Source: an uncultured Alphaproteobacteria bacterium
Lineage (GTDB): Bacteria; Electryoneota; RPQS01
Direction: 5' to 3'
Assembly (NCBI GenBank): GCA_964530625.1
Contig: CAZHAK010000012.1
Coordinates: forward strand, 8,654 to 72,653
DNA length: 64,000 bases
The notes under the pieces are model-generated. The model was not told the origin of the DNA. It made no database searches and saw only the letters and a program-made list of their open reading frames with translations. Positions 38,708 through 62,659 of this stretch are shown one piece after another. Numbering within the stretch: the first letter of the stretch is position 1; the number at the start of each line of letters is the position of its first letter. Position numbers and translations under genes: made by a program.

Positions 38708-38748
38708 AAGCAAGTCTTTGGGATTTTAGCTACAACCGAATGTAATAG

Positions 38749-43725: not shown

Positions 43726-43746
43726 TCTGCTGACGGGAGGTTGGGA

Positions 43747-46404: not shown

Positions 46405-46408
46405 ACCC

Positions 46409-47740
46409 GTGAGCGGCTTCTTTTCGTTTCGCCGCAAGAATCCGGGGCAGGTCTTCGCGTGGGCGACCTACGATTTCGGCAACTCAGCCTTCGCGACGAC
46501 AATCCTTGCCGTAATCTTCAACAAATATTACGCGGGCGTCATCGCTGGCGGCGCGGAGGGAGTTGCGGTGATGGGAACACAGGTTCCCGGCACGACGGTC
46601 TTTAGTTTTTTTGTTTCGGCCAGTATGATTCTGGTCGCGTTGCTGGGGCCGCTACTCTCTGCTCTTTCTGATTTGGGTCACCTGAAACGGCGCATGCTCC
46701 TGCTGCATACAGCGATTGGAGTTGCCGCGACGATGATGCTCGCGACACTCGGCGAAGGCGATTGGCTGATCGGCGGAGTATGGTTTACCATCGCACAATT
46801 TGGTTTTGCCGGAGCCGCGATTTTTTACAACGCGATGCTGCTGGACATCGCGGATCCACAGGATTACGCGAAAGTCTCAAGCATCGGCTGGGCGTGGGGA
46901 TATTTAGGCGGCGGGATGCTGTTGGCTGTGAATCTTGTCATGCTTCAGTATCCGCACTTGCTGGGCCTTCCCGCGGGCTTTTTCACGGTTCAGCACTGTT
47001 TCTTAAGCGCGGCGGTTTGGTGGGCGGTGTTTACAATCCCCATCGCGCTCTCCGTGCGCGGGCAACCGTCTGCGAAAACCGTGAGGATCAAGCAAGCCTT
47101 CCGCGCGTTACTCCGCAGCCTAAGAAGCCTGCGCAAACTTCCGACATTCTCGCGCTTCTTCTTTGCATACTTGCTTTACAATGACGGGATCGAAACCGTA
47201 ATTATCATGGCGTCCATCTTCGGAGATCAGGAGTTACATATGGAAACAGGAGAGCTTGTGCTCTTCTTCCTAATGGTGCAGGGTGTCGCCTTTGTGGGAT
47301 CACTTATTTTTGGAGTGATCGCCAACCGTTGGAACAATCGCGACGCGGTTTTGTTGGGTGTGGGAATCTGGAGTCTAGTTGCGCTCTGGGGTTGGCAGTT
47401 GGGCTGGATGGGCGATGCCTTGCAAGAATACTGGTTTTTGGGAATTCTCGCGGGTCTCGTGTTGGGTGGTACTCAAGCGGCTTCGCGTTCGCTGCAAGCC
47501 ACTCTGATTCCACCCAGTCAATCTGCGGAGTTTTTTAGCTTCTTTGCGGTTTCCGGAAAGTTTGCAAGTGCGGTCGGACCGGCTATCTTCGGAATTGCCG
47601 TTTGGATCACCGGCAGCTTGCGAATCGGGATGTTGTCACTACTGATATTTTTCGTACTCGGCGCATGGCTGCTTTGGGGAGTTTCCGAAGAGCAGGGCCG
47701 TCGGGAAGCACTCGACTTTCAATCAAATAGAGATGAATAA
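46409..47740 (+). CDS. MFS transporter, UMF1/Atg22-like family
   Basis: N-terminus 'WATYDFGNSAFATTILAVIFNKYY' and about 12 hydrophobic segments. GTG start 4 nt after the preceding stop. Confidence 0.85.
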   Translation: MSGFFSFRRKNPGQVFAWATYDFGNSAFATTILAVIFNKYYAGVIAGGAEGVAVMGTQVPGTTVFSFFVSASMILVALLGPLLSALSDLGHLKRRMLLLHTAIGVAATMMLATLGEGDWLIGGVWFTIAQFGFAGAAIFYNAMLLDIADPQDYAKVSSIGWAWGYLGGGMLLAVNLVMLQYPHLLGLPAGFFTVQHCFLSAAVWWAVFTIPIALSVRGQPSAKTVRIKQAFRALLRSLRSLRKLPTFSRFFFAYLLYNDGIETVIIMASIFGDQELHMETGELVLFFLMVQGVAFVGSLIFGVIANRWNNRDAVLLGVGIWSLVALWGWQLGWMGDALQEYWFLGILAGLVLGGTQAASRSLQATLIPPSQSAEFFSFFAVSGKFASAVGPAIFGIAVWITGSLRIGMLSLLIFFVLGAWLLWGVSEEQGRREALDFQSNRDE

Positions 47741-47773
47741 ACCAAGTTTAAAGACTTCAAGACGGGAGATTAC

Positions 47774-48397
47774 ATGAACGTTGCGCGACTCTTTTTTGCA
47801 CTGCTGCTCACATTCAATCTATCCGCACATGCCGAGGAGATGCCCGAACTTGCGACCCTTTTGGCGCTCTTCAGCGCGAGCGCGACAGAGAACGGCACCA
47901 TCCGCTTGAATTGGACCCTCGACCAGCAATCTCCTGCCGTGATAAAATTTCGCGTTTATCGCGGCTATGAAGAACTGGGAAACTTCTCCGTCTTATCCGA
48001 GATTCCGTTTCACGCGGAACAGGGCGCGGCGGACTATCTGTTGAACGACACGTCGGCGATTCCGGGTGTGACCTACTACTACAAGCTCGCGGCACAAGGT
48101 CAACTGAACGAATCCATCTTCCCTGTCGTGATTTCGGCAGGAGTACCATTAGGCGACAAGAACGCGGGTCAGGACGACGAAGCTCCCGCGATCATTCTTC
48201 CCGGTGAGACGGTAAGACTGTACGTGCGCAAATCCGGGCACGTCAAGCTCGAACGCACAGCCCCCGAACAAAAGACACTGATTGATGGCGAGTTAGCATC
48301 GGGAGTCTATGAAGTCGAAGCGGGCCCGGCTGCTCAATCGCTGAAAGTTTGGGCGGGGCAAGCCTACGAGTTTTCGTTAAGCTGGCCGATACAATAA
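47774..48397 (+). CDS. secreted hypothetical protein with FN3-like domain
   Basis: Signal peptide 'MNVARLFFALLLTFNLSAHA' and an FN3-like stretch 'IRLNWT...FRVYRG...GVTYYYKL'. Confidence 0.75.
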   Translation: MNVARLFFALLLTFNLSAHAEEMPELATLLALFSASATENGTIRLNWTLDQQSPAVIKFRVYRGYEELGNFSVLSEIPFHAEQGAADYLLNDTSAIPGVTYYYKLAAQGQLNESIFPVVISAGVPLGDKNAGQDDEAPAIILPGETVRLYVRKSGHVKLERTAPEQKTLIDGELASGVYEVEAGPAAQSLKVWAGQAYEFSLSWPIQ

Positions 48398-48414
48398 GCA
48401 GTGTTACGGCTAGC

Positions 48415-48445
48415 AAAAGAGCCACTCCCGTGAGTGGCTCTTCAG
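48415..48445. terminator. bidirectional rho-independent terminator
   Basis: Hairpin agagccactc / gagtggctct with a 4-nt loop, between the convergent genes ending at 48397 and 48467. Confidence 0.7.
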
Positions 48446-48466
48446 CTTATTGAATCTCTATGTCCG

Positions 48467-49315
48467 TTACACTCTCGCGTCCGCGATACACTGTATCAAC
48501 TGCGAGTGAAACTCCTGTGACGCTCCGAGAATGTTTCCCGACTCAAGAAAGTTTTCGTCGCCGTCAAAGTCACTGCACACTCCGCCTGCTTCTCGAACGA
48601 TCAAAGCACCCGCCGCAATGTCCCACGGCGACAGACGGTGCTCCCAAAAACCGTCAAAGATCCCCTGCGCAGTCCAGCATAAGTCCAGCGCGGCGGCGCC
48701 CGCTCTGCGAATGGCGCGGCATCTTGGAAAAATGACCGCGAACTCTTTCAGATAAAGTGTAAGCTCGTCCGAGTGCCGGCGCGGAAATCCCGTCGCCAAG
48801 ACCGCGTCGCCAAGTTTAATTTTGCGTGTAACAGCCAAGCGCTGTGTATTCAAGTAGCTGCCCTTGCCCTTTGCGCCCCAAAACAGCTCGCCCGTTACAG
48901 GATTGTACACGACTCCGCACAGCAGTTCCTGCACACCATCGTCGCGCACTTCAACTAACCCCAGACTGACGGCAAAGACCGGGAACCTCTGTACAAAATT
49001 GGTCGTACCATCGAGAGGGTCAAGATACCAGATCAGTCCGTTCCCTTGGCGGGATGTGCCTTCTTCACAAATTATTCCCGCTTCAGGCATTTCCTTTTGC
49101 AGGAATTCCGACACAACCGCTTCCGATTCAATATCTGCGCGCGTCACAAGATCCCCTCTGCCCTTCTCGCGCACGTCTTTCCCGCTCAGATCTTGCCAGT
49201 AGTTCATCAGCACGTCTCCGGCCTTCAGGCAGGCCAAAATGGCAAGCGACGCCCGCTCGTCGGTTCCAAGGGCCAACTTGCGTGCGTCGCGGAAGAATTC
49301 AGTTGAAGTGTTCAC
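48467..49315 (-). CDS. suhB: inositol monophosphatase family protein
   Basis: Contains 'WYLDPLDGTTNF' and 'WDIAAG'. Confidence 0.9.
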   Translation of the reverse strand: MNTSTEFFRDARKLALGTDERASLAILACLKAGDVLMNYWQDLSGKDVREKGRGDLVTRADIESEAVVSEFLQKEMPEAGIICEEGTSRQGNGLIWYLDPLDGTTNFVQRFPVFAVSLGLVEVRDDGVQELLCGVVYNPVTGELFWGAKGKGSYLNTQRLAVTRKIKLGDAVLATGFPRRHSDELTLYLKEFAVIFPRCRAIRRAGAAALDLCWTAQGIFDGFWEHRLSPWDIAAGALIVREAGGVCSDFDGDENFLESGNILGASQEFHSQLIQCIADARV

Positions 49316-49376
49316 GGCCTGTTCATCTCGTATCGTTGTTTGCGTGTCTTTACGATACGATTTCGCAAGCTGACAA

Positions 49377-50129
49377 TCAAGTCTGGGGAGCGTTTCGGGA
49401 GAGCGTCACGGTCAGCACGATGCGCCCGGTTTCCTGCTGGACCTCGTAAGTCGCGCCGTTCTCCCCTAGTCGCGCCAGATACATGTGCAATCCGTCTGTC
49501 TGCAACGGCTCTTCTTCAGTCTCAAAGTATTTCGCCTCCATCACAAGCACGCCAGTGCTGTTGGCAAAATTCGTGGTGACGTTCAATTCAACCAGTCCGC
49601 GCGAAAAGTCATGCGCCGCCAGCGCGCGCAGCACAAACTCGTCAATCACCGCCGCTATATGTTTATACACGGTATAAACCGTGTAGGCATCGCTGGCCAG
49701 ATCAAAGCGCTTGCGCACTTTGTGCTTATAGGTCAAGTTCGCGTCCAGAAACTGCAATTCGTTGCTGACCATCTCAAACAAGGACATCGGACCGGGCGTT
49801 TCCTGTGCGCAACGATGAAAGCGTCTGATAATTACCTGCAAGAGCTCTGTCAAATGACGGGCATTGCGCGACATAATATCGAGATTCGAACAGCTTTTTT
49901 GATGCTGCACTTTCAGGGCTTCGGCAGATTGCGACGCGCCATGCTCAAGCTCTTTAAGCAGCCGTTCCTGCTCGCCTACGCGCATTTCGAGCAGCTGCGT
50001 GGCGCCAATCACTCCGGAGAGTGGGGTCGCGAGATTGTGAACGATACCCGGCAGCAAGCTTCCGAGAAACTCGAGTTCAAGGCTGTCGAAGTGAGCGCTT
50101 GGCTGCTGTTTTGACGTAGAGTCTGTCAT
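49377..50129 (-). CDS. histidine-kinase-like protein (HisKA-like H-box, degenerate ATPase domain)
   Basis: Has an H-box-like 'IVHNLATPLSGVIGATQLL'. I see no TM or sensor domain, and no recognisable N/G1/G2 ATP-binding boxes. Confidence 0.6.
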   Translation of the reverse strand: MTDSTSKQQPSAHFDSLELEFLGSLLPGIVHNLATPLSGVIGATQLLEMRVGEQERLLKELEHGASQSAEALKVQHQKSCSNLDIMSRNARHLTELLQVIIRRFHRCAQETPGPMSLFEMVSNELQFLDANLTYKHKVRKRFDLASDAYTVYTVYKHIAAVIDEFVLRALAAHDFSRGLVELNVTTNFANSTGVLVMEAKYFETEEEPLQTDGLHMYLARLGENGATYEVQQETGRIVLTVTLSRNAPQT

Positions 50130-50496
50130 ATGTTTCGGCTTGCTTTTCCTGAAGAAAGTCTGTAAGTTACAAGGGTCAGTGCTGAATCTTGCCGGTCTGA
50201 ACGTGCGTAAACCCGTGAATAATGTTCTGATGCATGTTCAGTATTTGCAAATACAGTTCCCAAGTTATACTGAGCCTCCACTTCTTAGTTGGCAGGCGCA
50301 CATTGTTGCGGCCGAATAGCACCGCTTGCCGCAACTTGCCAAAGAGAGTCCCCATAGCGACTGAATCAAACATCATTCATGCATAAAGCGGCGCACCGCG
50401 TCGTCCCCCGACTCGGAATGTTTTGAAGTATCGCAACGTGAAGTTGCCGGATCATCACACTACGATTGAAAAACATTACCTACCAGTACCATTTCA

Positions 50497-51906
50497 TTGA
50501 CTCGTTTATTTGAACCACGCCGCCACGTCGTCGCCACGTTTTCCGAACAGACAGCGCTGTTTATCTCGCTGATTCGTTGGACAATTTTGGCCCTTGTCGT
50601 GGGAACGGTTGTGGGCGCGTCAACATACGGCTTCATAAAACTGCTCGAGTGGTCGTCTGAAACGGCAGCACAGTTTCCCTATTACTTTTTGGCGATACCG
50701 ATAGCGTTTGTTTTGTCCGCTCTCCTGGTGCACTATCTTGCACCGGACGCGGAGGGCCACGGCACAGAACGGATCATTGACGCGGTGCACAAAAACAGTG
50801 GCCGCATGCGGTTGCGCGTGGTGCCCGTTAAAGTGCTCACAACGGTCATAACCATTGCTGGCGGCGGTAGCGCAGGCAAGGAGGGTCCGGCGGCACAAAT
50901 CGGCGCGGCGCTCGCGTCGGGATTTGCATCGCTCATGAAGCTTAATGACCGCGACCGCAAAAAAATTGTGGTGTGTGGTATTTCGGCGGGCTTTGCCTCA
51001 GTTTTCGGAACACCTGTAGCCGGAGCGATCTTTGGAATAGAAGTGCTGTTTCTGGGTCACTTGATGTACGATGTTTTAGTGCCTTCGTTCATCGCCGGAA
51101 TAACAGCCTATCAGGTTGCCTCCTGGTTGGGACTGCAATACTGGTCGCACGCGATTGTTGAGATTCCTCCTTTGGGTCAGGGCTATGTCATTCAACTGGT
51201 CTTGACCGGTGTCGTGTTCGGCCTCGTGACGGTGTTATTCATCGAGTTCGTGAGATTTTTGAAACGCGCGATGCCGATCTTATGGCCAAACTTCATCGCG
51301 CGCGCGTTTGTCGGAGGCATGGTAGTCGTAGGGATCGCCGTCGTGTTCGGTTTCGAGGTCACGGGCTTGGGCACGGAACATATCGAACACATTTTCGAAG
51401 GGGAACCGGTTACTCCCTTCCTGTGGCTGGGCAAGATTCTCGCAACAGCCGTGACCCTTGAAGCCGGCGGGTCCGGCGGGATAGTCACGCCCATTTTCTT
51501 TGTCGGCGCGGCCGCAGGCAGTTTCTGGGCGGGAATAATTGGTGCCAATGCCGTCACGATGGCCGCACTGGGCACAACCTCCATACTCGCCGGCGCGGCC
51601 AACACACCGATTGCCGCCTCTATGCTGGCGATTGAAATGTTTGGCGCGGATATCGGCCCTTATGCGGCGGGATGCGCAATGGTCTCATTCATCATGACGG
51701 GTCATCGCAGCATCTACCCCAGTCAAGTGCTTTCGGCATCCAAGAGCGATTCATTGGTGGCTCAGTTGAACGAGCCGCTTGCACCCCACACGCGCTCGAC
51801 CTTGAGTACGGAAGGTCAGGAAGAGTTTGATCGAGTTTATTCCTTCCCGATGCGGGTCTGGAGATTCCTTACAATCGGCATCTGGCAATGGAAGCCGCGC
51901 AAATAA
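50497..51906 (+). CDS. voltage-gated chloride channel (ClC) family protein
   Basis: Contains 'GGGSAGKEGP' and 'GGSGGIVTPIFFVG' in a polytopic protein. The start codon is uncertain; the track uses TTG. Confidence 0.9.
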   Translation: MTRLFEPRRHVVATFSEQTALFISLIRWTILALVVGTVVGASTYGFIKLLEWSSETAAQFPYYFLAIPIAFVLSALLVHYLAPDAEGHGTERIIDAVHKNSGRMRLRVVPVKVLTTVITIAGGGSAGKEGPAAQIGAALASGFASLMKLNDRDRKKIVVCGISAGFASVFGTPVAGAIFGIEVLFLGHLMYDVLVPSFIAGITAYQVASWLGLQYWSHAIVEIPPLGQGYVIQLVLTGVVFGLVTVLFIEFVRFLKRAMPILWPNFIARAFVGGMVVVGIAVVFGFEVTGLGTEHIEHIFEGEPVTPFLWLGKILATAVTLEAGGSGGIVTPIFFVGAAAGSFWAGIIGANAVTMAALGTTSILAGAANTPIAASMLAIEMFGADIGPYAAGCAMVSFIMTGHRSIYPSQVLSASKSDSLVAQLNEPLAPHTRSTLSTEGQEEFDRVYSFPMRVWRFLTIGIWQWKPRK

Positions 51907-51907
51907 A

Positions 51908-51935
51908 AGAAGGCCGCCTGTTTGAGCGGCCTTCT
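51908..51935. terminator. bidirectional rho-independent terminator
   Basis: Hairpin agaaggccgc / gcggccttct between the convergent genes ending at 51906 and 51956. Confidence 0.7.
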
Positions 51936-51955
51936 TCACATGTAAACCGGAAACA

Positions 51956-54900
51956 CTAAGTCACGAGCTCTTTCAACTCAACGTGGCCAACCAAGACTTC
52001 TACCGGGTGACCCCAATCGCGAATGCGGGGATCTCTGGTCAACAAAACTACTTGTCGCTTCGCGGCAATCTGTTCGATTAACTGCCGCGATATGTTCAGA
52101 TGATGATCATCCAATTGTGATAACACATCATCCCAGAAAATCGGAGCACGCTCCGCCACGGAAGTCGCGGAAAGCAGTCCGGCGATTAAACATAGCGCCA
52201 CAAGTTCCGAGACGCCGCGCGACTGCGATTTCAACGCTCGTCGTTGCCCATCGTCCATCACCATGATCCATTCGCTCCCACTCCACGCCACCGACGCGAA
52301 TTTTTCTCCGATTGCCTCAAACACCACGCCTTGAATTATCGCCAGCACCGACTCGCTCGCCTGATCACGCTGTTCAGCCAATTCCGTGGTCAGCACATAG
52401 CACATTGAGCGCGCCGCTTGCATGCTCTTCTCGATTTCCTCAATTTTCGCTTGCGCAGACGCACGCTCGTTCTGCAGTTGCTGATCGGACGGAAAGTTTT
52501 GAACTTGAGCCTGCAAGCCGGGCAGATCAAGCTTTCCAACCTCGTCAGAAAGTCGGTCGGCAAGCTCCAAAGAAGCGTGAGCTTGTGCCGTTAACTCCCG
52601 CATTTGTTCACGGTACTTGACCAACCCTTCTTCCCGTGAGCCGATGGTCGCAAAGAGCGGGTCCAGTTCCTGAATGCGTGCGGTAACCTGAGCCAATTCC
52701 TCTTCGATCATACTTGTTCGCGCGGACAACTCTTGCGGAGACCGCTCAGCACTGAGTTTCGCTTTAGCTTCGCGCAGTCCGGCCTGAAGTGAGTCGCTCT
52801 CTCGAATCGCGGCCAGAATTTCATTTGCTCCAAGCTTCGAAAATGCGCCGCCCACGGATTCATCCAGCGACTCCATTCCTGAAATCACGTCGCGCAATTG
52901 CTGTCGCACGGCCTCCATATCCGGAGTCTTCGCTAGTTCCGATTCGACGCGACTGATTGAAGTCGTCAATTCCTGACGGCGCTTTTTGCGCTCGTTCAGA
53001 GTTTCTATTTCATTGCGCTCAAGAGTTGCAATCTCTTCGCGTAACCGCTGAGACTCAAGTTCCATCTCCGCGCTGCGTGCATGAGTTTCGTCCTCTCTGT
53101 CAAACGAGGTCAGTGCAGCATTCGCCTTCGTCAGATTGGCCGTCAAAGTCCGATAATCGGTCACCCGTCTGCGAATGTCTTCGCGCTCGAGTTTTCGCAA
53201 TACGGCGGGCACAGGGTCATCCGCCGGAGCGTCAACTATTCTTTCGCACATATTCGCCAGAGTCTGTTTGCGTTCGGTCAACCTGACAAATTCATTCCAA
53301 CGCGCTAGCGCGGACTCACGATCAGAAAACATTGTGAACATCTGCAAATCTCTACGCAATGCTTCCCGTTCCGAAAGCGCCGACTGCTGCAGATGCTGCA
53401 ACGTCTCTATCTTGCGGACATGGTCATCCGCGTCTTCCTCGTAGTTTGGCGAAGTCAACCGGCCGATGGCATACCCGGCTCCTCCTCCAATCACCGCGCC
53501 GAAGAAACCAACGTCCCAGCCCAAAGTTAGACCACTCGGCACACCTGCCACGGCCGCACCCAGCACAGACATAATCACTTTCGTACCGGCTCCAGAGCCT
53601 TTGATCTGCAACTCGACGACTTTGCGGCGCAAGTCGGCCAACTCGGTTTCGCGAGCAGTCACCGCCTCCTGCAGGGCGAAGAGCTTTTCTATCCGCGCCG
53701 GTGTATCCGTTGAAAGTGTGAAAAATTCTGCAAACTCTTTGATCAGTCTCTCGTTAACACGCTCAAGTTCCGCTTGTTGCTTCCCCGTATCGACTTGTTG
53801 CCTGTCGTCAGAGTCGTTCTCGTCTGAGTCAATATACCGCTCGAGCGCCAGCCATTCGTCCGGACCCAGCGCGGCAAGCTCTCCATATTTTTCCGTGCGT
53901 TGCTTTTCCAAACCGTCGCGCTGTCTGAGTAAATCAATCCTCGTGCGTGATAGATCTTTTGAGATACCCTCCAATTCTGCAAGCCTCACATACAACGGTT
54001 GCGTCACCGGCCCCGGCGACTCGCTTGCGGACATCTCTGAAATTTCCTTCTGAAGTCGACTGATGGTCTCTGAGAGCTCGGCAGATTTTCCTTCGTTCGC
54101 TCTTAGCTGCGCCGCAAGAGTATTGCGCGCTTCAGATAACCTCAGATAGTCTTGTGCAAGCTGCTCCGCGTTGTCGCCCAGCTCCCGTGTGATAGAGTGT
54201 ACCGCTTCGAGCCGCTCCTGCAATTGCGCGAATTGACTCCGCGCGGATTCAACGCTGTTCCATGAACTCCGAAGTTCAGCCGCCCAAAGCTCTAAATGAA
54301 CACACCGTTCAGCCAGCTCGATCTTGCTGTCAAGATCTTTCTTCTCCTCGGACGAAACATTCGCCGCCAATTCCGCATCCGTGATCCGCTCTTGCAACTC
54401 GCCGCTCTTCTCTTCCGCGACACGTAGTTTTTCGCGCAGCGCATGGGAGTTCAATAACTGCTGCTCGATCCGCGAGACATCAGCGTGCAAGTTCAGGAGT
54501 CGCGATTGCCCATCACCTTCCGTCAATGATTTAAGTCGGCGTTGCCATACATCAAATTCTCGCTGTAGCGGCACACTAGTCATCTCCGCTGCCCAGTCCA
54601 AAAGTTCTTGCTCAGGTGCCTTCCACTCTCCGTTCAAAACAAAATTCGGCAACGCTTCAGGCATCGTTTCAACCGGCAGGAACAGATCCGTAAACGGGCT
54701 GTATTGTCCCAAACTATCCGCTTGTTCCGAATGTTGCCTTACCTGACCGCTCTCAGTATCCAATGACCACTCGCGCTTGATCGGCCCCAGCTGTCCGACC
54801 ACCGTCACGCGCAGAAGCCCCGCCTTGAACAAACTATGCCGCAAGCTCTCAGTATGGTTGGGCAATGTCGCCGCCATCACTGCCGAACACAAGAGCGTCT

Positions 54901-55057
54901 TTCCGCCGCCGTTTCCCGCAGCAAAAACATTCAGGCCATCGCCTCGTAATTTCCACGTTACCTGCTCAGCCCCAAGCAGGCTCGGCTTGCCGGACAATTG
55001 AACGAACTGGAGAGAGAAAATGGGAGGGTGTCCTGACTGTCGCGGCATTCGGTTCAC
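51956..55057 (-). CDS. Rad50/SbcC/SMC-like coiled-coil ABC-type ATPase with central glycine-zipper hydrophobic hairpin
   Basis: Walker A 'AAGNGGGKT' lies near the N-terminus. About 850 aa of E/L/R/Q-rich coiled-coil-like sequence follow. The C-terminus has 'SRGVSEL' and 'IFWDDVLSQLD'. Residues 487-534 are hydrophobic and Gly-rich. Confidence 0.8.
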   Translation of the reverse strand: MNRMPRQSGHPPIFSLQFVQLSGKPSLLGAEQVTWKLRGDGLNVFAAGNGGGKTLLCSAVMAATLPNHTESLRHSLFKAGLLRVTVVGQLGPIKREWSLDTESGQVRQHSEQADSLGQYSPFTDLFLPVETMPEALPNFVLNGEWKAPEQELLDWAAEMTSVPLQREFDVWQRRLKSLTEGDGQSRLLNLHADVSRIEQQLLNSHALREKLRVAEEKSGELQERITDAELAANVSSEEKKDLDSKIELAERCVHLELWAAELRSSWNSVESARSQFAQLQERLEAVHSITRELGDNAEQLAQDYLRLSEARNTLAAQLRANEGKSAELSETISRLQKEISEMSASESPGPVTQPLYVRLAELEGISKDLSRTRIDLLRQRDGLEKQRTEKYGELAALGPDEWLALERYIDSDENDSDDRQQVDTGKQQAELERVNERLIKEFAEFFTLSTDTPARIEKLFALQEAVTARETELADLRRKVVELQIKGSGAGTKVIMSVLGAAVAGVPSGLTLGWDVGFFGAVIGGGAGYAIGRLTSPNYEEDADDHVRKIETLQHLQQSALSEREALRRDLQMFTMFSDRESALARWNEFVRLTERKQTLANMCERIVDAPADDPVPAVLRKLEREDIRRRVTDYRTLTANLTKANAALTSFDREDETHARSAEMELESQRLREEIATLERNEIETLNERKKRRQELTTSISRVESELAKTPDMEAVRQQLRDVISGMESLDESVGGAFSKLGANEILAAIRESDSLQAGLREAKAKLSAERSPQELSARTSMIEEELAQVTARIQELDPLFATIGSREEGLVKYREQMRELTAQAHASLELADRLSDEVGKLDLPGLQAQVQNFPSDQQLQNERASAQAKIEEIEKSMQAARSMCYVLTTELAEQRDQASESVLAIIQGVVFEAIGEKFASVAWSGSEWIMVMDDGQRRALKSQSRGVSELVALCLIAGLLSATSVAERAPIFWDDVLSQLDDHHLNISRQLIEQIAAKRQVVLLTRDPRIRDWGHPVEVLVGHVELKELVT

Positions 55058-55354
55058 GTATGGGAGTTGCCTTGAGGGTGTGCATAACTGATATTAACTA
55101 TAGCAAGCAATATACATTTGCTCGCCCGTAAAGACAAGTATTCTAAGTATCTTCGAAACAAGTCACGACAGAAGTGTGCAAAACTTGCAAAATACGGCCA
55201 ATTGTTTTTTCACGACTTGAATGGTTCGATTGCCAAGCACCATTCCGCCTGCCTCTCTTCAGCGCAGTATCAAAATCATTCAGAATAGTAGTTAGTCTCA
55301 AGAAAATTTCGTAAAATTAGAGCGGTTCCGGCTAATGAAACCTTATTGACCCAT

Positions 55355-56140
55355 ATGCGACTGGCACTGACTCTGATTCTTGGTATTTTCACATTGGGGG
55401 AGGCCGCAATCGCCGCAGACTTCGTGCGGCTGAAAAGCGGCCGCCTGATAGAGGGCGCGGTCATCCGACAAGATACAATCGCCGTCTATCTCGCCCCGTG
55501 GGATCAGCGCGCCCTCAGGCAGCCAGAGCTTCAAGTTTTCGCCCGCGACGAAGTGGAATCAATCTGGCTCGGCGGCAAACCCGCCAAAGGTGTTAGACGC
55601 AAATACACTCCGCGGCCTGGACTTGTTGAATTAGGCGGCGGATTGGGACTGCAAACATGGGCCTCCACCTTGCATCAGCGCCGACATCTTATCCAGTTTT
55701 CGACGCTGGTAGGAACTTCTATCAGTGACTATCTCGGCATGGAGTTAGTCGGTGAGATGACGGCGCCATTTGGTAAATCCGCCGATCCCGGTTTTGATTC
55801 GCTGCAATTCTCATATCAGCTTGCGCTTCACCTTGTAGGCACGCTGAAAACCAAAAGCCCGTTCACTCCGTTCGCGTATGTAGGCGCAGGAATCGGCCGC
55901 GACGTCTCGACCGCTGGCGTAACCTTGACCAAACACGCGGATGACAGGAATCTGGTGGAAGTCGGCATCGGGGCCAAACTCGGTTTCGGCGGTGTCGGGC
56001 TCCGCACAGAGATTCGCCATGCATACTATGAATGGAACAAGACTATTTACATCGGCTCGTCCAACGGGCGCGACTACTACACGACACGGCAATCCGCGGA
56101 CGCGACCAGCATGCGTGTCTCGCTGTTCACATACTTTTGA
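55355..56140 (+). CDS. outer-membrane beta-barrel protein
   Basis: Signal peptide 'MRLALTLILGIFTLGEAAIA', alternating amphipathic strands, and a C-terminal '...VSLFTYF' aromatic terminus. Confidence 0.75.
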   Translation: MRLALTLILGIFTLGEAAIAADFVRLKSGRLIEGAVIRQDTIAVYLAPWDQRALRQPELQVFARDEVESIWLGGKPAKGVRRKYTPRPGLVELGGGLGLQTWASTLHQRRHLIQFSTLVGTSISDYLGMELVGEMTAPFGKSADPGFDSLQFSYQLALHLVGTLKTKSPFTPFAYVGAGIGRDVSTAGVTLTKHADDRNLVEVGIGAKLGFGGVGLRTEIRHAYYEWNKTIYIGSSNGRDYYTTRQSADATSMRVSLFTYF

Positions 56141-56154
56141 TCTTGGAGATCACC

Positions 56155-59073
56155 ATGCGCCCGCAAAAGATTCTTAGCATCATATACATCGCGCTGATTT
56201 CAACGACCGCGTTCGCCGCTCAGGATTACTCCGTGGAGTTGCTGACGAAGGCTCTCGTAAAGAGCGAACAGCTTGAGTCGGGCACACTTGCCGACTGGAA
56301 GCGCGTGCGTTCAGAAGGCTTTGACGGATACGGAGTATACTGGGGAATTCCCGTCACTCTCGATGCGAAATCTTCCGGACAATCACTTGCAGAGTCCATC
56401 GCCTCAGAGCTTGACCTTGCCGATGAGTATACACTGCTTGCCTCACACGTATCTCCCACTCGCGAGTACGAGATATTCAGAGAACTCCGTAACGGACTAC
56501 CTGTGATTGGCGGCAGACTTGATATTGCCCTGAACAAAGCAGGACAGCTTACACGAGTCACTCACACGAGCTTCTCGAAGTGGAACACAAGCGGCATGCA
56601 TGCTCTGAGTCCGTTTGTCGCGGCAACGTATCTAACAGCGAACCTCGAACCAGCGAATTGGCAAGTGGTCAATGAAGAATCCTTCGCCTGCTGGTACCCG
56701 GATGCCGACGCGAGAAATTTGCGCGCAGCCTACTGGCTGAAAGTTGCAGGATCCCAGCCGCACCAAAGGTATTTTGGAATTGTAGACGCCCAGTCCGGCA
56801 AAATTTTGCTGGAATGGCCGGGCATCGCACACGAGGTGCTTACGTTGAATGTAGACCAGCCCTATTGGCAGCCCTACGATCATAGTCAGGTCTTGGAAGC
56901 GCCTTGCCAGCATCAATCAGTCAGAATAAACGGCTCAACCTTTACGACCAACGCATCCGGCGCTGTATCCGCTGAAGCCGGGTCTCAAGCGAACGTGGAC
57001 GCCTACCTGCAAGGATCATTTGTGGAAGTCGGAGAGCACGAAGAATCAAACGTCCCGTGGCAGAGCGCAACTTACTCCGCGCCCTTCGTCAACAATGAAT
57101 TTTTTTGGGATCAAGATCACACCAGCCGCCCGGCCCTTAATCTCTACTACCACACGATGTTTATTCACGACTGGTACAAGATTCTTGATCCTCCCTATGA
57201 CGCATTGGACTATCCGGTGCCCGCTGTTGCAAACTATGGCAACAGTTACGACAACGCGTTTTGGAACGGCTACGGAACTTACTACGGTTCAGGTATGACC
57301 TACGGGAATTTTGCGATGTACTCCGATGTGATCTACCACGAATACACACACGGAGTGACCGATGGAATCTATCCCGACGGTACGTTGCCCTACACGGGGC
57401 AGTCGGGCGCCATGAATGAAGCGTGGTCGGATTACTTTGCCTGCACGATCAATGGGGATCATTTAATGGGTGAGTGGCTGACGGGAAATGCCACCAGTTA
57501 TTTTCGCAATCTTCTCAGCACGACCATTTATCCACAAAATTGGGTCGGACAAGTGCATGGCGACAGCCCGTTTATCTCCGCGCCGCTGTGGACTATCCGC
57601 AATGAATTAGGCGTCGGCTACGGTGATTCCCTCGCTCACTTCGCTCGCTATGCGCTGGCGGAAACTTTCTTCGACTACTTCTTGGCTGTGCTGGAAACCG
57701 ATGACACGGACGGGAATCTCGCCAATGGCACACCGAATGACTACGTGATTTACGACGCCTTCGGCAGACACGGCATCGGACCGGGCGTAAAGCCCAATTT
57801 GGTCATTCGTAACTTTGTTATTGACGATTCGGACGGCAACGGCAACGGTTTTGCGGAAGCGGGTGAAAATGTGACCATGACGTTTTCCATTGTCAATGAC
57901 GTGACGCTCTTCCCGCCATTTGTCACGAACGCGGTGCTTCATACTGTTACGGACGACAACACAATCTCTCTCGGAGACACGGAGTTTTCGTTAGGCACGA
58001 TTGGCCCGCGCGACTCGATTCAAATCGGGCCGAACGCTGTGACCGTTTCATCAGGCGCTACGGAACATTGGGCGGTAGTTCGTCTTGACGTGACCTCAGA
58101 TCAATTTTCAGAAGAGTTCGAAACCCCGTTGGAATTCGTGATCGGTGTTCCAAAAGTGCACGTCGTCACGCGCGCGCTTGCAACGGATGTTGACCAATAT
58201 GTCACAGGCTCACTGCGTACCATGGACAAGATATTTGTGCACAAGCGTTTAAACTCATCGCAAGGCCTGGATCTGTCCGCACTGCCTGATACAGGCATGG
58301 TTGTTTGGTTGTCCGGCGACGCAACGAACTCCGGTTTGTCTGAGCAAGACATCACCACACTGACCGCTCATGTCGGCGGCGGTGGTCGCCTGGTGCTGTC
58401 CGGGAAAAATATTCTGGGTGGAATCACGGGCAGCGATTTTGCTCGCAATACTCTGGGCGTGGACGCTGTGGGCCGTTCCCGCTTGAGGATGACAACAAGA
58501 ATGAATATGCCCTTTGCCGAAGGCGACGTGTATCTATTGACAGGATCAGGCGGTGCGGCTAATCAAGATAGCATGACGATGCTGGACGTTATGACCAACT
58601 CAACTCCCGTGCTCAGGTTTGGTCCATCAGGTAATGACATTTCCGCTGTCGCCGGACCGATTGGCGGACGAACTCTCGTCTTCGGTTTTGGCATAGAAGG
58701 GATTGTCGACAATTCCCCGATCGGAAATCAATCGCGTGCTGTCTTCCTCTCGCGGCTGCTCGACTGGGCGGGCCACCCGACACCAGCCGATGATCACATA
58801 GCCCCCGTTTGGCGACCCAATGATTTCGCGCTGCAAGCAGCTTATCCGAATCCATTCAACAGCACAGTGCGACTGGATTACAACATCGGCAACGCAAAAA
58901 ACGCGCGTCTAGTCTTTTTCGATGTCTTAGGCAGAGAAGTTCATCGAGACAATTTGCCCGCTCAGTCAAACGTTTATTCGTGGCAGCCGAGCCTTGCCTC
59001 AGGCGTGTACTTCGCCATTCTGCAATCGGATTTTCAAACATCCGCGCCGCAGAAGTTAATGCTGCTTCGTTAA
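56155..59073 (+). CDS. M4 (thermolysin-like) zinc metalloprotease with T9SS C-terminal sorting domain
   Basis: GGAG SD before ATG 56155 and a signal peptide. Has 'HEYTHGVTDG' (57337-57351) plus 'GAMNEAWSD', matching the thermolysin HExxH...NEaxSD pattern. The C-terminus 'YPNPFNSTVRLDY...GVYFAIL' is a Por tail. Confidence 0.88.
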   Translation: MRPQKILSIIYIALISTTAFAAQDYSVELLTKALVKSEQLESGTLADWKRVRSEGFDGYGVYWGIPVTLDAKSSGQSLAESIASELDLADEYTLLASHVSPTREYEIFRELRNGLPVIGGRLDIALNKAGQLTRVTHTSFSKWNTSGMHALSPFVAATYLTANLEPANWQVVNEESFACWYPDADARNLRAAYWLKVAGSQPHQRYFGIVDAQSGKILLEWPGIAHEVLTLNVDQPYWQPYDHSQVLEAPCQHQSVRINGSTFTTNASGAVSAEAGSQANVDAYLQGSFVEVGEHEESNVPWQSATYSAPFVNNEFFWDQDHTSRPALNLYYHTMFIHDWYKILDPPYDALDYPVPAVANYGNSYDNAFWNGYGTYYGSGMTYGNFAMYSDVIYHEYTHGVTDGIYPDGTLPYTGQSGAMNEAWSDYFACTINGDHLMGEWLTGNATSYFRNLLSTTIYPQNWVGQVHGDSPFISAPLWTIRNELGVGYGDSLAHFARYALAETFFDYFLAVLETDDTDGNLANGTPNDYVIYDAFGRHGIGPGVKPNLVIRNFVIDDSDGNGNGFAEAGENVTMTFSIVNDVTLFPPFVTNAVLHTVTDDNTISLGDTEFSLGTIGPRDSIQIGPNAVTVSSGATEHWAVVRLDVTSDQFSEEFETPLEFVIGVPKVHVVTRALATDVDQYVTGSLRTMDKIFVHKRLNSSQGLDLSALPDTGMVVWLSGDATNSGLSEQDITTLTAHVGGGGRLVLSGKNILGGITGSDFARNTLGVDAVGRSRLRMTTRMNMPFAEGDVYLLTGSGGAANQDSMTMLDVMTNSTPVLRFGPSGNDISAVAGPIGGRTLVFGFGIEGIVDNSPIGNQSRAVFLSRLLDWAGHPTPADDHIAPVWRPNDFALQAAYPNPFNSTVRLDYNIGNAKNARLVFFDVLGREVHRDNLPAQSNVYSWQPSLASGVYFAILQSDFQTSAPQKLMLLR

Positions 59074-59093
59074 ACTTACTTTCGATAAACAAG

Positions 59094-59117
59094 AAACGGG
59101 ACGCCAGCGCGTCCCGT
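59094..59117. terminator. rho-independent terminator between convergent genes
   Basis: Hairpin aacgggacgc / gcgtcccgtt with a 4-nt loop. Confidence 0.65.
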
Positions 59118-59135
59118 TGTCATTTCTCTTAGGCT

Positions 59136-59960
59136 CTATTTCTTCTTCTGACATCCCGGACAGTAGTAGGTCGAGCGCTGTGCTTGCACGATCTTTTTAA
59201 TCCTTTTGCCGCATCTCAAACACTCCTCATCTTCGCGATCATAGACACGGAACTCTTTCGCGTACGCGCCGTACTTTCCGTCCGGACTCATAAAGTCGCG
59301 CAAGGTCGAGCCGCCTTTCGTCAAAGCCGTCCGAAGCACCTCAGGCACAGCTTCGCACAATCGCTCACACTGCCGGACGGACAATAGTTTGGCACTCTTG
59401 CGCGGATCAATTCCACTAACCCAACAAACTTCGCTCGCATAAATATTCCCGATCCCCGCCCAGAGCGACTGATCCAACAGTACAACCTTAATCGCTTGCG
59501 TGCGAGTCGTCAACGCAGCTTTTAACTCGGAGCCGGTGATTCTTTCCTCCAATGGCTCCCATCCCAGACGGCGCAGCTCTTTAACACCCGACGCGCTCCT
59601 GTGATACCGAATCGTCCCCAGCGTCCGCACGTCACGAAAATAGAGCGATTCAGTTCTGTCATCCAAAGCGAAACCCGCTCGCAGATGCTCATGCGGAGAC
59701 TCTTCCGTTGCTGCGACATACAACCTGCCCGTCATGCGCAGATGCACCAGAAGCAATCCGCGCTCGAGTGTCAGCAAAATGTATTTACCCCGCCGCGTGA
59801 CGGACACAATATTCTGATCCTTGACGACGCGATTAAGTTCTTGAGCGGTCATCGTGCCAAGCTGACGCGGAATAGTAGCCCACGCTCCCCTTAGGACTCT
59901 GCCCACAACAGCAGGGCGAAGCTCGCGCACGACCGTTTCAACTTCAGGCAGTTCAGGCAT
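59136..59960 (-). CDS. mutM: formamidopyrimidine-DNA glycosylase
   Basis: N-terminus 'MPELPEVETV' and a C-terminal zinc finger 'CLRCG...CPGCQ'. Confidence 0.95.
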   Translation of the reverse strand: MPELPEVETVVRELRPAVVGRVLRGAWATIPRQLGTMTAQELNRVVKDQNIVSVTRRGKYILLTLERGLLLVHLRMTGRLYVAATEESPHEHLRAGFALDDRTESLYFRDVRTLGTIRYHRSASGVKELRRLGWEPLEERITGSELKAALTTRTQAIKVVLLDQSLWAGIGNIYASEVCWVSGIDPRKSAKLLSVRQCERLCEAVPEVLRTALTKGGSTLRDFMSPDGKYGAYAKEFRVYDREDEECLRCGKRIKKIVQAQRSTYYCPGCQKKK

Positions 59961-61173
59961 CAGGATGCTCTTTCAGAAAGTCTCCAACTAAGTAGAATGA
60001 TCCGCAAATCACCGAGCGTGAAGTTTCCGGCAAGGCTAAGATTTCTTCATATGCAGTAGCTCGCTCCACAACTCGCACCCGAAAGCCCAATTCCGCCCCG
60101 ATATTCGCCAACGCATCTGCGGTATATGTCCGCGGCGTCGGCGCGGACGTCACCCACAATTCATCAATGACTCCCGTCAACTGCCGAAGCGACTCGCGTG
60201 CGTCCTTGTCCTTCATCATGGCCACAAGTGCAATTCGCTTTGCAATCTTCGTTTCAAGTCGCAGCGACTCGGCAAGCGCCGCAAACGATGCCGGATTGTG
60301 ACACACGTCAAGCATGACGTTAGGATGACTCACAAGATCTTGTTGACGACCCATAACCTTAAGACCCGAAAGACTGTTCCGCACGTCATCATCCGAAAGT
60401 CCGCTGTCCAAACTCCTAACAGCAGCAACCGCCACGCTCAAATTATGGTTCTGAAATTCACCGGGCATAGGAATCATAAAATCTTCAATCAAAGCAAAGT
60501 CGCGCCCTTCAAGAAATAACTTTGCCTCTTTCCGTGCCACTGCGTGCTCGATCTCAACTGCAGCCTCTTCTGCCTGCCAAACACTGAAGCAATTCATTCC
60601 CTGTTTTATTATTCCGCTCTTGTCTGCCGCGATAGCCCCAAGCGTCTTACCCAGAATATGCGTGTGATCAAAATCAATCCTGGTTAAAATCGCCGTAGTC
60701 TTTATCAAAACGTTCGTTGCGTCAAAACTTCCCCCCAATCCCGTCTCGACGACATGCGCGGTCGTGCCGAGTCGTTGCGCGCACCACAAGTAAAAAGCGA
60801 ATATCGTTTCAAAATAAGTCAGTTTAGTTGCTGCATCGCGCACTGCAGCAATTCCTTCACACCACAATTCGTCCGGCAAATCCCTTCCGTCAAGCTGCAC
60901 TCGCTCTTTTGGCGACACCAAATGCGGACTCGTGAAAGTCAGTGCTGAGTGATTCGTCGTCAAGAGCGCCTGACACATCGCGGCCACCGATCCTTTCCCG
61001 ACGGTTCCGGCGATGTGAAGGCAATGCGAAAGTTCAAGTGGAAGTTTAAGTTGACGGGCGGCTTCAAACACCAGCTCAAGTTTAGGCCGGTCGCGGCTAC
61101 CGCCGAGCGGAAACTCGACTTCATAGTTAATCAATGAGTCGAGGTATACCAGAACCTCTTTGAAACTATTCAC
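59953..61173 (-). CDS. folC: bifunctional folylpolyglutamate synthase/dihydrofolate synthase (Mur ligase family)
   Basis: P-loop 'HIAGTVGKGS' with Mur-ligase middle and C-terminal domains. Overlaps mutM by 8 nt. Confidence 0.9.
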   Translation of the reverse strand: MNSFKEVLVYLDSLINYEVEFPLGGSRDRPKLELVFEAARQLKLPLELSHCLHIAGTVGKGSVAAMCQALLTTNHSALTFTSPHLVSPKERVQLDGRDLPDELWCEGIAAVRDAATKLTYFETIFAFYLWCAQRLGTTAHVVETGLGGSFDATNVLIKTTAILTRIDFDHTHILGKTLGAIAADKSGIIKQGMNCFSVWQAEEAAVEIEHAVARKEAKLFLEGRDFALIEDFMIPMPGEFQNHNLSVAVAAVRSLDSGLSDDDVRNSLSGLKVMGRQQDLVSHPNVMLDVCHNPASFAALAESLRLETKIAKRIALVAMMKDKDARESLRQLTGVIDELWVTSAPTPRTYTADALANIGAELGFRVRVVERATAYEEILALPETSRSVICGSFYLVGDFLKEHPDA

Positions 61174-61599
61174 GAAAGTAAGAGTAGAATGGGCTAAGGG
61201 AAGACGTTATCTATACAAAGATACGCAGATGCCTTCTGACGCGCAAGGTGTGTGAAGAAATACAAACGGACGGAGTAATTCCGCGTTGCGCCGGAGCAAC
61301 CTGCAAGGAATCGTGCAGAATGCACGGAGAGGAGTGAGAGGAGGCTTAAGAGCTCGTGCGTGGTTTTTTTGCCCCAGCCGTTAAGCCGGTTTCCGCAGAC
61401 GAAGTCATCCAGCCCTTTACGCTATGCCATAACATCGTAAAGAAGTTTTTACGATGGGAGCTTGTTGAATTCTCAGAGGTTTTGCCGCATGTGGACCCGT
61501 AAAAGGGCACATGATTTTGGTCCGTCCACTGATCGAATTCGGGTTGCGGTTTCATAATAAATGGGTTGTATAAAAATTCTTTTGGTTGGTCTGCTCCCC

Positions 61600-61628
61600 T
61601 TGCGCCGGGGCAATAGGAGCAGTATATT
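61600..61628 (+). promoter_or_regulatory. promoter candidate for the 92-aa gene
   Basis: TTGCGC-N17-TATATT, about 90 nt upstream of ATG 61717. Confidence 0.3.
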
Positions 61629-61716
61629 TACTACAGTTCGATGAAGAAGCTGCGGCCACGCGGGTGTCCGCTAGATTAGATGATTTTCTTATTATTGATA
61701 CAGCAAGGAGCAGCCG

Positions 61717-61995
61717 ATGTCCACATTTGAAGAAACTATGGAAAACAGCCGGGTCTTTCTGACTTACAGTTTGGCAATGACGATGCTCGGAAAATCCGCG
61801 CAGATTCTGGCCGAGCGCGGCGCAGATGCCAAAGCGATGAGCTTTGTGACCACGGGAATCGAGCTTCTGGCCAAGCAGCTCCGGGACTATGCGGATAGCA
61901 AGGATCTCGATGACGGTGCTGAGAAAGAACTCGACAGCCTGTGCAAGATGCTGGATATCCAGCGGGCCAACGGCGGAGCCGCTCCCTCCGCGTAA
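61717..61995 (+). CDS. small helical hypothetical protein (92 aa)
   Basis: AAGGAG SD 6 nt before the ATG and a terminator hairpin 14 nt after the stop. I prefer it to the antisense 151-aa ORF, which has low-complexity R/G/S-rich content. Confidence 0.65.
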   Translation: MSTFEETMENSRVFLTYSLAMTMLGKSAQILAERGADAKAMSFVTTGIELLAKQLRDYADSKDLDDGAEKELDSLCKMLDIQRANGGAAPSA

Positions 61996-62008
61996 TGGGC
62001 AAACCAAC

Positions 62009-62050
62009 TTGGTGTAAAAGAAGCCGGTGACACTGAATGTGCACCGGCTT
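62009..62050 (+). terminator. rho-independent terminator
   Basis: 11-bp stem agaagccggtg / caccggcttct followed by a T-rich tail. Confidence 0.65.
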
Positions 62051-62179
62051 CTCTATTCTTATTGCGTTCCGTCAAGCGGGATTACGCGAAGCAAGTTCCC
62101 GCCGGAACGTCAAGCAAAATCGAAAATCTCAAGCACACGCGTCAGCTCATCCAGTCCAGCGGCACGCTGGCGCTGGTGG

Positions 62180-62428: not shown

Positions 62429-62458
62429 TATGGAAATCTCCGGTTAACTTGAGTAGTT

Positions 62459-62470
62459 GTGTTATAACAC
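62459..62470. promoter_or_regulatory. perfect 12-bp palindrome, candidate operator
   Basis: GTGTTATAACAC, about 30 nt upstream of the XRE gene start codon. Confidence 0.4.
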
Positions 62471-62656: not shown

Positions 62657-62659
62657 ATC

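Follow-up and report, generated by a model that had tools for sequence, protein, structure and literature searches.

SMC-like ATPases are understood through two features, the apex of their coiled coil, which is a hinge or a zinc hook, and their partners, which are a kleisin or a nuclease. Rad50 and SbcC have a CxxC zinc hook and are accompanied by Mre11 or SbcD. The YhaN/SbcE proteins, to which the Pfam family AAA_27 belongs, are a large, named superfamily that is almost unstudied, and their hydrophobic central domain is already known (PMC2811018). In 2009, SbcE (YhaN) of Bacillus subtilis was described as having a novel central domain, insoluble, rich in hydrophobic residues and carrying a conserved proline; SbcE interacts with SbcF (YhaO), and its role in mending double-strand breaks and in competence is known from B. 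subtilis genetics (PMC2811018). A search of the literature on membrane-anchored SMC-, Rad50- and SbcC-like proteins, AAA_27, SbcE/SbcF and YhaN/YhaO returned this as the sole relevant experimental paper. Here we describe an SMC/Rad50-like ATPase gene located at 51956..55048 on the minus strand of a 64,000-nucleotide stretch of contig CAZHAK010000012.1 (hereafter the window). An earlier note, made from the sequence alone, had proposed an orphan Rad50/SMC-like ATPase with a membrane-type, glycine-rich hairpin at the apex of its coiled coil. With a probability of roughly 0.6, we read the protein as a homodimer-forming, Rad50/SbcC-like ABC-type ATPase of the YhaN/SbcE superfamily that acts as a membrane-tethered DNA clamp.

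ATPase head, coiled-coil arms and relatives

The window protein possesses the two halves of an ABC-type head, one at each end of the chain. The N-terminal half (aa 4-165; 54563..55048, minus strand) contains the Walker A motif, or P-loop, AGNGGGKT at 54896..54919 (minus strand), exactly where the earlier note had placed it. The N, G and K of this motif are invariant in the 28-sequence family alignment. The same half carries a conserved insert specific to the family, LPHFxxNGxW...WA..M..VPLEREL..W..RL. The Q-loop of Rad50 carries a Gln in a 'QGE' motif. In the window protein its equivalent is probably NGEW (aa 142-145; 54623..54634, minus strand), in which Asn would replace the Gln; N142 and G143 are invariant within the close clade.

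The C-terminal half of the head (aa 916-1033; 51959..52312, minus strand) matches the Pfam model SMC_N at aa 946-1008, with an E-value of 1e-3 that lies below the curated cut-off, and Foldseek gave matches to the C-lobes of Rad50 (TM-scores 0.55-0.64). Its signature, or C-loop, QSRGV (52211..52225, minus strand) has the 'SRG' form found as LSRGT in AAA_27/YhaN, while the distant family clade has LSGG. The Walker B motif (IFWDD) and the D-loop (SQLD) follow at 52109..52144 (minus strand), in the 'DD...LD' form typical of AAA_27/YhaN. The identification of these motifs, first made in the earlier note, is borne out by alignment with the relatives: 'SRGVSELVAL' lines up with their LSRG/LSGG signature, and 'PIFWDDVLSQLD' with their Walker B and D-loop. 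At the H-loop position, LLTRD (52031..52045, minus strand), an Arg stands where the AAA_27 relatives have LTCH or LTHD, and this replacement of His by Arg is found in 28/28 family members. Because both the H-loop and the putative Q-loop are altered, to Arg and Asn respectively, a slowed or altered hydrolysis step is suggested.

Between the two head halves and the apex lie an N-terminal coiled-coil arm of 321 aa (aa 166-486; 53600..54562, minus strand) and a C-terminal one of 377 aa (aa 539-915; 52313..53443, minus strand). Residues E, L, R, Q, A and K make up 57-59% of both. In the AlphaFold2 model of the full-length protein (mean predicted local distance difference test score, pLDDT, 70.9) the arms are long helices with a few breaks, as expected from the long E/L/R/Q-rich arms recognised before, and pLDDT is low at the turn of the apex. 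Conservation at the level of the heads was also found in blocks of the arms, namely AERxxxLExWxxELR..W..VE at aa 249-285 (about 54203-54313) and LSRxRIDLLRxRDG at aa 369-382 (about 53912-53953) in the N-terminal arm, and VLRKLEREDIRRRV at aa 619-632 (about 53162-53203) and DPLF..G...GL.KYR.Q at aa 799-818 (about 52604-52663) in the C-terminal arm. Several of these blocks fall on predicted helix breaks. They may be joints or an elbow, or else sites that bind partners.

The Foldseek search with the full-length model returned Smc5/6, condensin, Rad50, MukB and JetC with E-values from 1e-12 to 1e-8. Local matches to the head chains of Pyrococcus Rad50 had a root-mean-square deviation of 3-5 Å and 18-22% identity. 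Like Rad50 and SbcC, the window protein has an ABC-type head fold, long antiparallel coiled-coil arms and weak matches to the NCBIfam models. However, it has no CxxC motif, no linked nuclease, and a hydrophobic apex. Its five Cys residues, at positions 57, 252, 604, 886 and 956, are all unpaired, so that no CxxC exists in the whole protein, and a Pfam scan of the protein gave no SMC_hinge match; the absence of both hook and hinge had been stated by the earlier note. With SMC, MukB and JetC it shares the arrangement of head, arm and apex, and these gave the best global Foldseek matches (Smc5/6, 1e-12; condensin, 6e-11; JetC and MukB, 1e-8). It differs from them in lacking a hinge domain and in having no kleisin or KITE/hawk genes nearby, and its arms are shorter than those of MukB or JetC.

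Curated profile models say little about the affiliation of the protein. The models AAA_23, AAA_27 and SbcC_Walker_B, which the earlier note had suggested as a check, gave no match in library scans of the whole protein and of its parts. The NCBIfam models ASRP, SbcC and Rad50 matched far below their curated cut-offs; sbcc_Staph reached 21 bits where 920 are required, and Rad50 13 bits where 700 are required. A sequence search of the PDB with the family profile gave nothing below an E-value of 0.07.

The exhaustive profile search of 1.84 billion representative proteins detected 31 family clusters at E < 1e-30, with full-length members of about 990-1080 aa. One member, P0011 (814 aa, on a 563-kb NCBI contig), aligns up to residue ~787 and then continues into a short unrelated tail ending in ...AKFGSHTARIGSKGG, so that the C-terminal head is lost; either the gene is frameshifted or a pseudogene, or the metagenome-assembled genome (MAG) is misassembled at this place. 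The next matches beyond the family in the same search cover the C-terminal head only. Of the 79 that reach at least 750 aa, 76 carry a hydrophobic segment, or two of them, between 0.38 and 0.62 of the chain, and the distant hits that were scanned (P0043, P0047, P0053, P0055 and P0057) match the Pfam family AAA_27 with 29-74 bits. When the alignment of this AAA_27 set was used for searching, proteins named by JGI, UniRef or NCBI as 'uncharacterized protein YhaN' or 'YhaN AAA domain-containing protein' were returned, and 58 of 87 long YhaN-type hits contain a hydrophobic segment at 0.35-0.65 of their length.

The profile of the family (28 sequences) was aligned with that of AAA_27 proteins bearing a transmembrane hairpin (17 sequences) using hhalign, with a probability of 100% and an E-value of 4.2e-51 over 941 columns. 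The alignment begins at the first beta-strand, ends in the last helix and places hairpin on hairpin. Both groups have in common the LSRG signature, a Walker B of the form hhhhDD and a D-loop of the form x-L/F-D. They differ in the Walker A, which is GGNGSGK[ST] in the window family and GxNEAGKST in AAA_27, and in the H-loop described above. The link to YhaN and AAA_27, which had been offered before as a possibility, is therefore real. Like YhaN/SbcE, the window protein combines a Rad50/SbcC-like split head, arms of about 300 aa and a hydrophobic central domain with the absence of CxxC and hinge. Unlike YhaN/SbcE, the window family has a glycine-zipper second helix (in the clade of the window), is monocistronic and is confined to one uncultured lineage that appears to belong to the Fibrobacteres-Chlorobi-Bacteroidetes (FCB) group. 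This architecture and family relationship is the part of our reading that we hold with the greatest confidence. The window protein is a very divergent, nuclease-less relative of YhaN/SbcE and not a new type of machine. Given the hydrophobic middle segments in 76/79 of the distant hits and the alignment of hairpin on hairpin, a membrane-type apex is the norm in the YhaN/AAA_27 superfamily.

The hairpin at the apex

The apical hairpin of the window protein (aa 487-535; 53453..53599, minus strand) consists of a GSG hinge, helix 1 (aa 490-512; 53522-53590, minus strand), a G-W-D turn, helix 2 (aa 514-535; 53453-53518, minus strand) and an SPN hinge. Helix 2, GFFGAVIGGGAGYAIG, forms a glycine zipper. 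Glycine zippers drive tight packing of helices within membranes. The glycine-rich hydrophobic hairpin at the midpoint of the chain thus exists precisely as it had been delimited before (aa 487-534, nt 53456-53599). The pattern GxxxGxxxG occurs four times in the whole protein, always within aa 505-532. The protein has three uncharged stretches of 15 residues or longer, and two of them also belong to the hairpin (aa 494-514 and 516-532), with nothing but D515 between them.

The hairpin is kept in 10/10 close homologues, and at the same midpoint in 28/28 family members. In the alignment of 11 close homologues, which are 38-52% identical, 14 of its 48 columns are invariant (G491, G500, A504, P507, G509, L512, G513, D515, G517, F519, G524-526 and G528). 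In the same alignment its mean conservation is 0.73, next to 0.68-0.73 for the heads and 0.62-0.65 for the arms. Across the family the pattern is a basic flank, helix 1 (TM1), [G/S/A]-W-D-[I/V]-G-[L/F]-F, helix 2 (TM2) and again a basic residue, with G517, F519 and G526 invariant and D515 nearly so.

Clades with only 16-25% identity to the window protein have, as the aligned segment, a plain hydrophobic two-helix transmembrane hairpin, of which 'AVVAVVMALIGFAAGLVIADWAVGLFLALLTSGSFLLIFG' and 'LVPTAVVAVVMALIGFAAGLVIADWAVGLFLALLTSGSFLLIFG' are examples. Here the Kyte-Doolittle (KD) hydropathy reaches 2.5 per helix, and the best 19-aa window 2.75-2.9. The glycine content of helix 2 is 37-42% in the clade of the window, where the consensus is GFF[GA][AG]V[IL]GGG[AVL]G[YF][GA]I[GA], and 5-21% in the other clades. 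A survey of homologues for the central glycine zipper, as advised in the earlier note, therefore has a double outcome: the hairpin is conserved in all, and its glycine-zipper form is limited to the clade of the window. A model of the fragment aa 420-620, built from 16 sequences, has a mean pLDDT of 85.5 and shows helices at 490-512 (23 residues) and 514-535 (22 residues) joined by a one-residue turn, with short GSG and SPN breaks that separate the hairpin from the arms. A length of 22-23 residues fits the bilayer.

Judged from the window sequence alone, membrane insertion is borderline, and the Kyte-Doolittle scale and plain Hessa sums are too crude to decide it for such a glycine-rich clade. 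Nonetheless, the homologous segment of the distant clades is an unambiguous transmembrane hairpin, which makes a membrane hairpin very probable for the apex of the window protein as well. We consider insertion into the inner membrane likely. Of the earlier proposal, the membrane-type apex thus stands, while its supposed unusualness does not, since such an apex is usual among the nearest relatives.

Alternatively, the segment could be a soluble, glycine-rich cytoplasmic dimerisation knob that replaces hinge or hook without entering the membrane. The borderline hydropathy and the positive summed insertion energy in the clade of the window would fit such a knob, and so would a helix 2 with 37-42% Gly and the low pLDDT at the turn in the full-length model. 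It is, however, an improbable explanation, as the homologous segment is strongly hydrophobic in the other clades, the helices have the right length for a bilayer, and the hairpin is free of charge except for the conserved Asp of the turn, with a Trp at the turn and basic residues flanking both ends.

No described glycine-zipper family was recognised in the central segment. With a limit of E <= 10, the sole Pfam families returned for the central 101 aa were VTT_dom (0.015) and RTX (0.12), and Gly-zipper_Omp, Gly-zipper_YMGG, Gly-zipper_OmpA and Transgly_assoc were not matched. When the model of the central fragment was compared with the PDB using Foldseek, the top matches were the ClyA-family alpha-pore-forming toxins MakA, AhlB and SmhB (E 0.017-0.3, none significant). 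These toxins resemble the fragment in their long antiparallel helical stalk, capped by a hydrophobic hairpin that enters the membrane. However, they are secreted, have no ATPase head and are not homologous, so the likeness is a structural analogy only.

Gene organisation, partners and proposed mechanism

The open reading frame (ORF) extends over 51956..55057 (minus strand) and, read from a GTG start, encodes the 1033 aa reported before. The bases at this start are GTG AAC CGA ATG, and the ATG at 55048 is the likelier start, because the N-termini of the homologues begin at the equivalent Met and because F14, L16, H17 and Q20 are conserved. The coding sequence, stop codon included, would then be 51956..55048 and encode 1030 aa. 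For P0001, the identical protein in public records, the annotated start is a TTG, giving 1013 aa; the four conserved residues are all upstream of this TTG, which is placed too late.

An intrinsic terminator is located at 51908..51937 (minus strand), beginning 19 nt past the stop codon, between the ATPase gene and a convergent ClC channel gene. It consists of a G+C-rich stem of 13 bp and a loop of 6 nt, followed by UUUAUUU, with a folding energy of -25.4 kcal/mol (z -3.85). This stem was absent from the results of a consensus scan. On the other side, the divergent intergenic region measures 297 bp, close to the 290 bp given before. Alignment of the orthologous upstream regions revealed a sigma-70-like promoter at 55109..55137 (minus strand; TTGTCT-17-TATATT), followed by a conserved TGCTATAGT block; promoter and block lie about 60 nt upstream of the ATG and are kept in the orthologous loci. 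Given this conserved promoter and the terminator, the ATPase gene is monocistronic with its own promoter, and the same single-gene state with no adjacent partner was found in every orthologous locus examined. The terminator, the divergent promoter region and the partnerless, monocistronic gene of the earlier note have thus all been recovered.

In the upstream regions of the closest relatives (L002 and L001), a perfect inverted repeat, CACAAC-ATTCAA-GTTGTG, followed by GAAAAAACAA, is present in the middle of the intergenic region. The copy in the window is degenerate (55211-55228; minus-strand CGAACCATTCAAGTCGTG), and the more distant loci are without the repeat. It could be a candidate operator for one of the two divergent genes.

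In the five AAA_27 loci sampled, one of which is from a Marinimicrobia MAG, a Metallophos gene encoding 372-422 aa is the immediate upstream neighbour in the same orientation, and in many cases it overlaps the start of the ATPase gene. A profile built from the five Metallophos proteins was searched against the six-frame ORFs of the 64-kb window and of 10 family loci, which cover about 8 kb on either side and the whole span of the family. The best E-values were 3-9, and the positive controls gave 1e-124 to 1e-199. Likewise, tblastn with two Mre11/YhaO-like proteins found nothing in the window and the family loci. No SbcD/Mre11, kleisin or other partner is adjacent in the window or at the 10 family loci, in agreement with what had been noted for the window before. 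On our preferred reading, the window family has lost the linked Mre11-like nuclease gene, and the unlinked state is ancestral for the family. That the ATPase works independently of a nuclease is a tentative conclusion, which we hold at somewhat less than even odds.

The main rival explanation is an ordinary double-strand-break complex of the SbcEF/SbcCD type, whose Mre11/YhaO-like phosphoesterase gene has moved elsewhere. The earlier note had held that homologues routinely paired with a nuclease encoded elsewhere in the genome would point to an ordinary SbcC. A linked Metallophos gene is the rule among the AAA_27 relatives (5/5) and absent from the loci of the family itself (0/10). The interaction of SbcE with SbcF (PMC2811018) and the intact nucleotide-binding motifs of the head also speak for this rival. 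However, no Mre11/YhaO-like gene was found in the 64 kb or at the family loci, the unlinked state is ancient and stable, and the head has diverged, having lost both the match to AAA_27 and the His of the H-loop. We regard the rival as possible but doubtful.

Under the reading that we prefer, the membrane-tethered clamp, the N- and C-terminal halves of the chain would fold back into one ATPase head, which two antiparallel helical arms of about 320-380 residues, or about 45-50 nm, would join to the apex. There, the hairpin of two helices of about 22 residues would enter the inner membrane with both ends cytoplasmic, so that the G-W-D turn alone, about three residues, would be exposed at the periplasmic face. 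The glycine-zipper hairpins of two partners could pack via their small-residue faces into a four-helix bundle within the membrane, and this zipper contact would hold the dimer together constitutively, in place of a zinc hook or hinge. On binding ATP, the two heads would close at a distance of about 45-50 nm from the membrane, with DNA most probably enclosed, and the resulting ATP-gated clamp would hold or process DNA while tethered to the envelope.

To our knowledge, the characterised relatives of this ATPase class (Rad50, SbcC, SMC and RecN) all act on DNA. For the window protein, we put a DNA-related role at even odds on these grounds, and tethering of DNA to the membrane, which had been suggested before, would be one such function. 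A more specific possibility is a stand-alone, nuclease-independent, ATP-gated tether between the chromosome and the inner membrane of an uncultured FCB-type phylum, in which a dimer or higher oligomer of the zipper hairpins would replace hinge or hook and the Arg of the H-loop would act as a slow 'latch'. As a complete scheme this is unlikely.

Several observations weigh against the clamp. In the clade of the window the best 19-aa KD window is 1.84, in helix 1, the mean KD of helix 2 is 1.24, and the summed Hessa energy of the hairpin is +3.4 kcal/mol; in addition, AlphaFold2 is not membrane-aware. The Pfam family AAA_27 (PF13514) gave no match at E <= 1 with the whole protein or at E <= 10 with the N-terminal 157 aa, and SMC_N matched at E 6e-4, which is below its curated cut-off. 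With Arg at the H-loop and Asn at the Q-loop position, the ATPase cycle might be impaired. SbcE, the only relative studied experimentally, is very distant, and it was reported to form nucleoid and polar foci and is not a proven membrane protein (PMC2811018). No recognisable SOS/LexA-type operator was found in the aligned upstream regions. Finally, as the search for a nuclease covered the 64-kb window, an unlinked partner elsewhere in the genome is possible.

A role in anti-phage defence, of the type of Lamassu LmuB, Wadjet JetC or PbeC, was also considered. PADLOC gave weak matches to LmuB (E 3e-9, 34.6 bits, and 8e-8), BnzA (2e-4) and PbeC (7e-4), and the Foldseek results list JetC and Lamassu chains. 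LmuB resembles the window protein as an SMC-like ATPase without a classical hinge. However, the PADLOC matches cover mostly coiled coil or generic head, LmuA/LmuC-type partners are absent, and no effector, kleisin or partner genes are present near the ATPase gene. This is a single gene that keeps a fixed position in a block of housekeeping genes throughout a deep lineage; the G+C content is uniform, and nothing indicates an island or mobility. A defence island was rejected on account of the conserved synteny and uniform composition. The envelope-associated defence considered in the earlier note is thus disfavoured for a vertically inherited gene of a housekeeping block with weak PADLOC matches, and an anti-phage role is very improbable.

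Genomic neighbourhood, lineage and significance

The neighbours of the ATPase gene are the convergent ClC channel gene on one side and, on the other, divergent genes for an outer membrane protein (OMP)-like beta-barrel and an M4/M36-like metalloprotease, followed by fpg and folC. They belong to a conserved block with the order helix-turn-helix gene, folC, fpg, then protease and OMP, then ATPase, then HisKA-like gene, inositol phosphatase, MFS transporter, cargo protein of the type IX secretion system (T9SS) and epimerase. The block is present in every family locus with enough flank, including clades at 22-25% identity. In comparison with locus L016, the identity is 80% for the epimerase, 62% for the MFS transporter, 58% for Fpg, 41% for the protease and 37% for the OMP. 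For the ATPase, the tblastn alignment is restricted to the C-terminal 245 aa (31% identity), and the overall identity of P0025, the ATPase of L016, in the family alignment is 22%; the ATPase is the fastest-evolving member of the block. The G+C content is uniform over the 20 kb profiled (44000-64000). Because the block is fixed across a deep lineage, the family is a single orthologue group, passed on vertically within an uncultured lineage and placed in a block of core genes, rather than a mobile or defence gene.

The OMP-like beta-barrel (55346-56140, plus strand) has 264 aa, a signal peptide, a C-terminal Phe and a weak OMP_b-brl match. The metalloprotease (56152-59073, plus strand) has about 973 aa and a T9SS Por_Secre_tail. 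The mechanical ORF of the protease has its start at ATG 56032, so that it would overlap the OMP gene at its end; a likelier start is 56152, where a signal-peptide-like MRPQKILSIIYIALISTTAFA begins. The OMP and protease genes adjoin the ATPase gene in every family clade, even at 22-25% identity, and the adjacency may reflect no more than synteny, or else joint regulation from the 297-bp region between them.

The arrangement could be taken as a sign of a membrane scaffold or remodelling ATPase without a role on DNA, perhaps co-regulated with the OMP and the T9SS-secreted M4 protease. The persistence of the divergent OMP and M4/Por_Secre_tail genes in every clade, and the highly conserved arm blocks, which suggest partner-binding sites, are consistent with this possibility. 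However, the pair sits in the larger block with folC, fpg, the MFS transporter and the epimerase, and for this reason the adjacency may be nothing but synteny. Only about three residues of the ATPase would reach the periplasm, so that the outer membrane would be out of reach, and those relatives in this class of ATPases that have been characterised all act on DNA (SbcE: PMC2811018). We give this explanation little credence.

Just downstream of the ATPase gene in relatives lies a gene for a HisKA-like protein, with 37-79% identity. In the window it is found at 49377-50129 (minus strand) and encodes 250 aa, whose only match is to a HisKA-like phospho-acceptor domain (E 9e-6); it lacks a transmembrane segment and a recognisable HATPase domain. 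The ClC gene is present between the ATPase and HisKA-like genes in the window, at L003 and L009, and in one distant clade (L018), there with two further genes. The T9SS cargo protein (43741-46404, plus strand; 887 aa), with C-terminal FlgD_ig and Por_Secre_tail domains, is conserved in the block. The window belongs to the core chromosome and also contains the housekeeping region from tuf to rpoBC with its usual tRNA cluster (36869-38821 and 24469-38231), with tRNA-Thr, tRNA-Tyr, tRNA-Gly and tRNA-Thr upstream of tuf and tRNA-Trp downstream. Two ORFs of 1259 and 1443 aa fit rpoB and rpoC by size and position alone.

T9SS tails fit the FCB group. As neighbouring genes carry such tails, the host lineage fits an FCB-type bacterium. 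One MAG of the family bears the name 'Calditrichaeota bacterium ... AABM5'. The same block with T9SS cargo is held by two MAG records, CAZPKG010000003.1 (L007) and CAZJAD010000008.1 (L010), that have 'uncultured Alphaproteobacteria bacterium' as their title. Their label looks wrong, because the block is the same as in the MAGs named 'Calditrichaeota ... AABM5' or 'bacterium'.

What is new here is a divergent orthologue group below the Pfam thresholds, with no linked nuclease, an Arg in the H-loop and a glycine-zipper hairpin. Beyond the family, a third type of SMC-like apex, the two-helix membrane hairpin, is widespread according to these searches and occurs in most proteins labelled YhaN or AAA_27. 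The sole experimental paper found, of 2009, did not present the central domain as a membrane anchor (PMC2811018). The window family is a stripped-down case of this architecture, a single conserved gene with no linked nuclease and an altered hydrolysis motif, and it could serve to separate what the anchor contributes (dimerisation, localisation or force-bearing tethering of DNA) from the function of the nuclease. Should an unlinked nuclease exist, the system would be merely a divergent SbcEF-like repair complex. If the stand-alone tether is true, a bacterial SMC-like protein would operate from inside the membrane and need no partner subunit. The family draws attention to membrane-anchored SMC-like proteins as a class that has been neglected.

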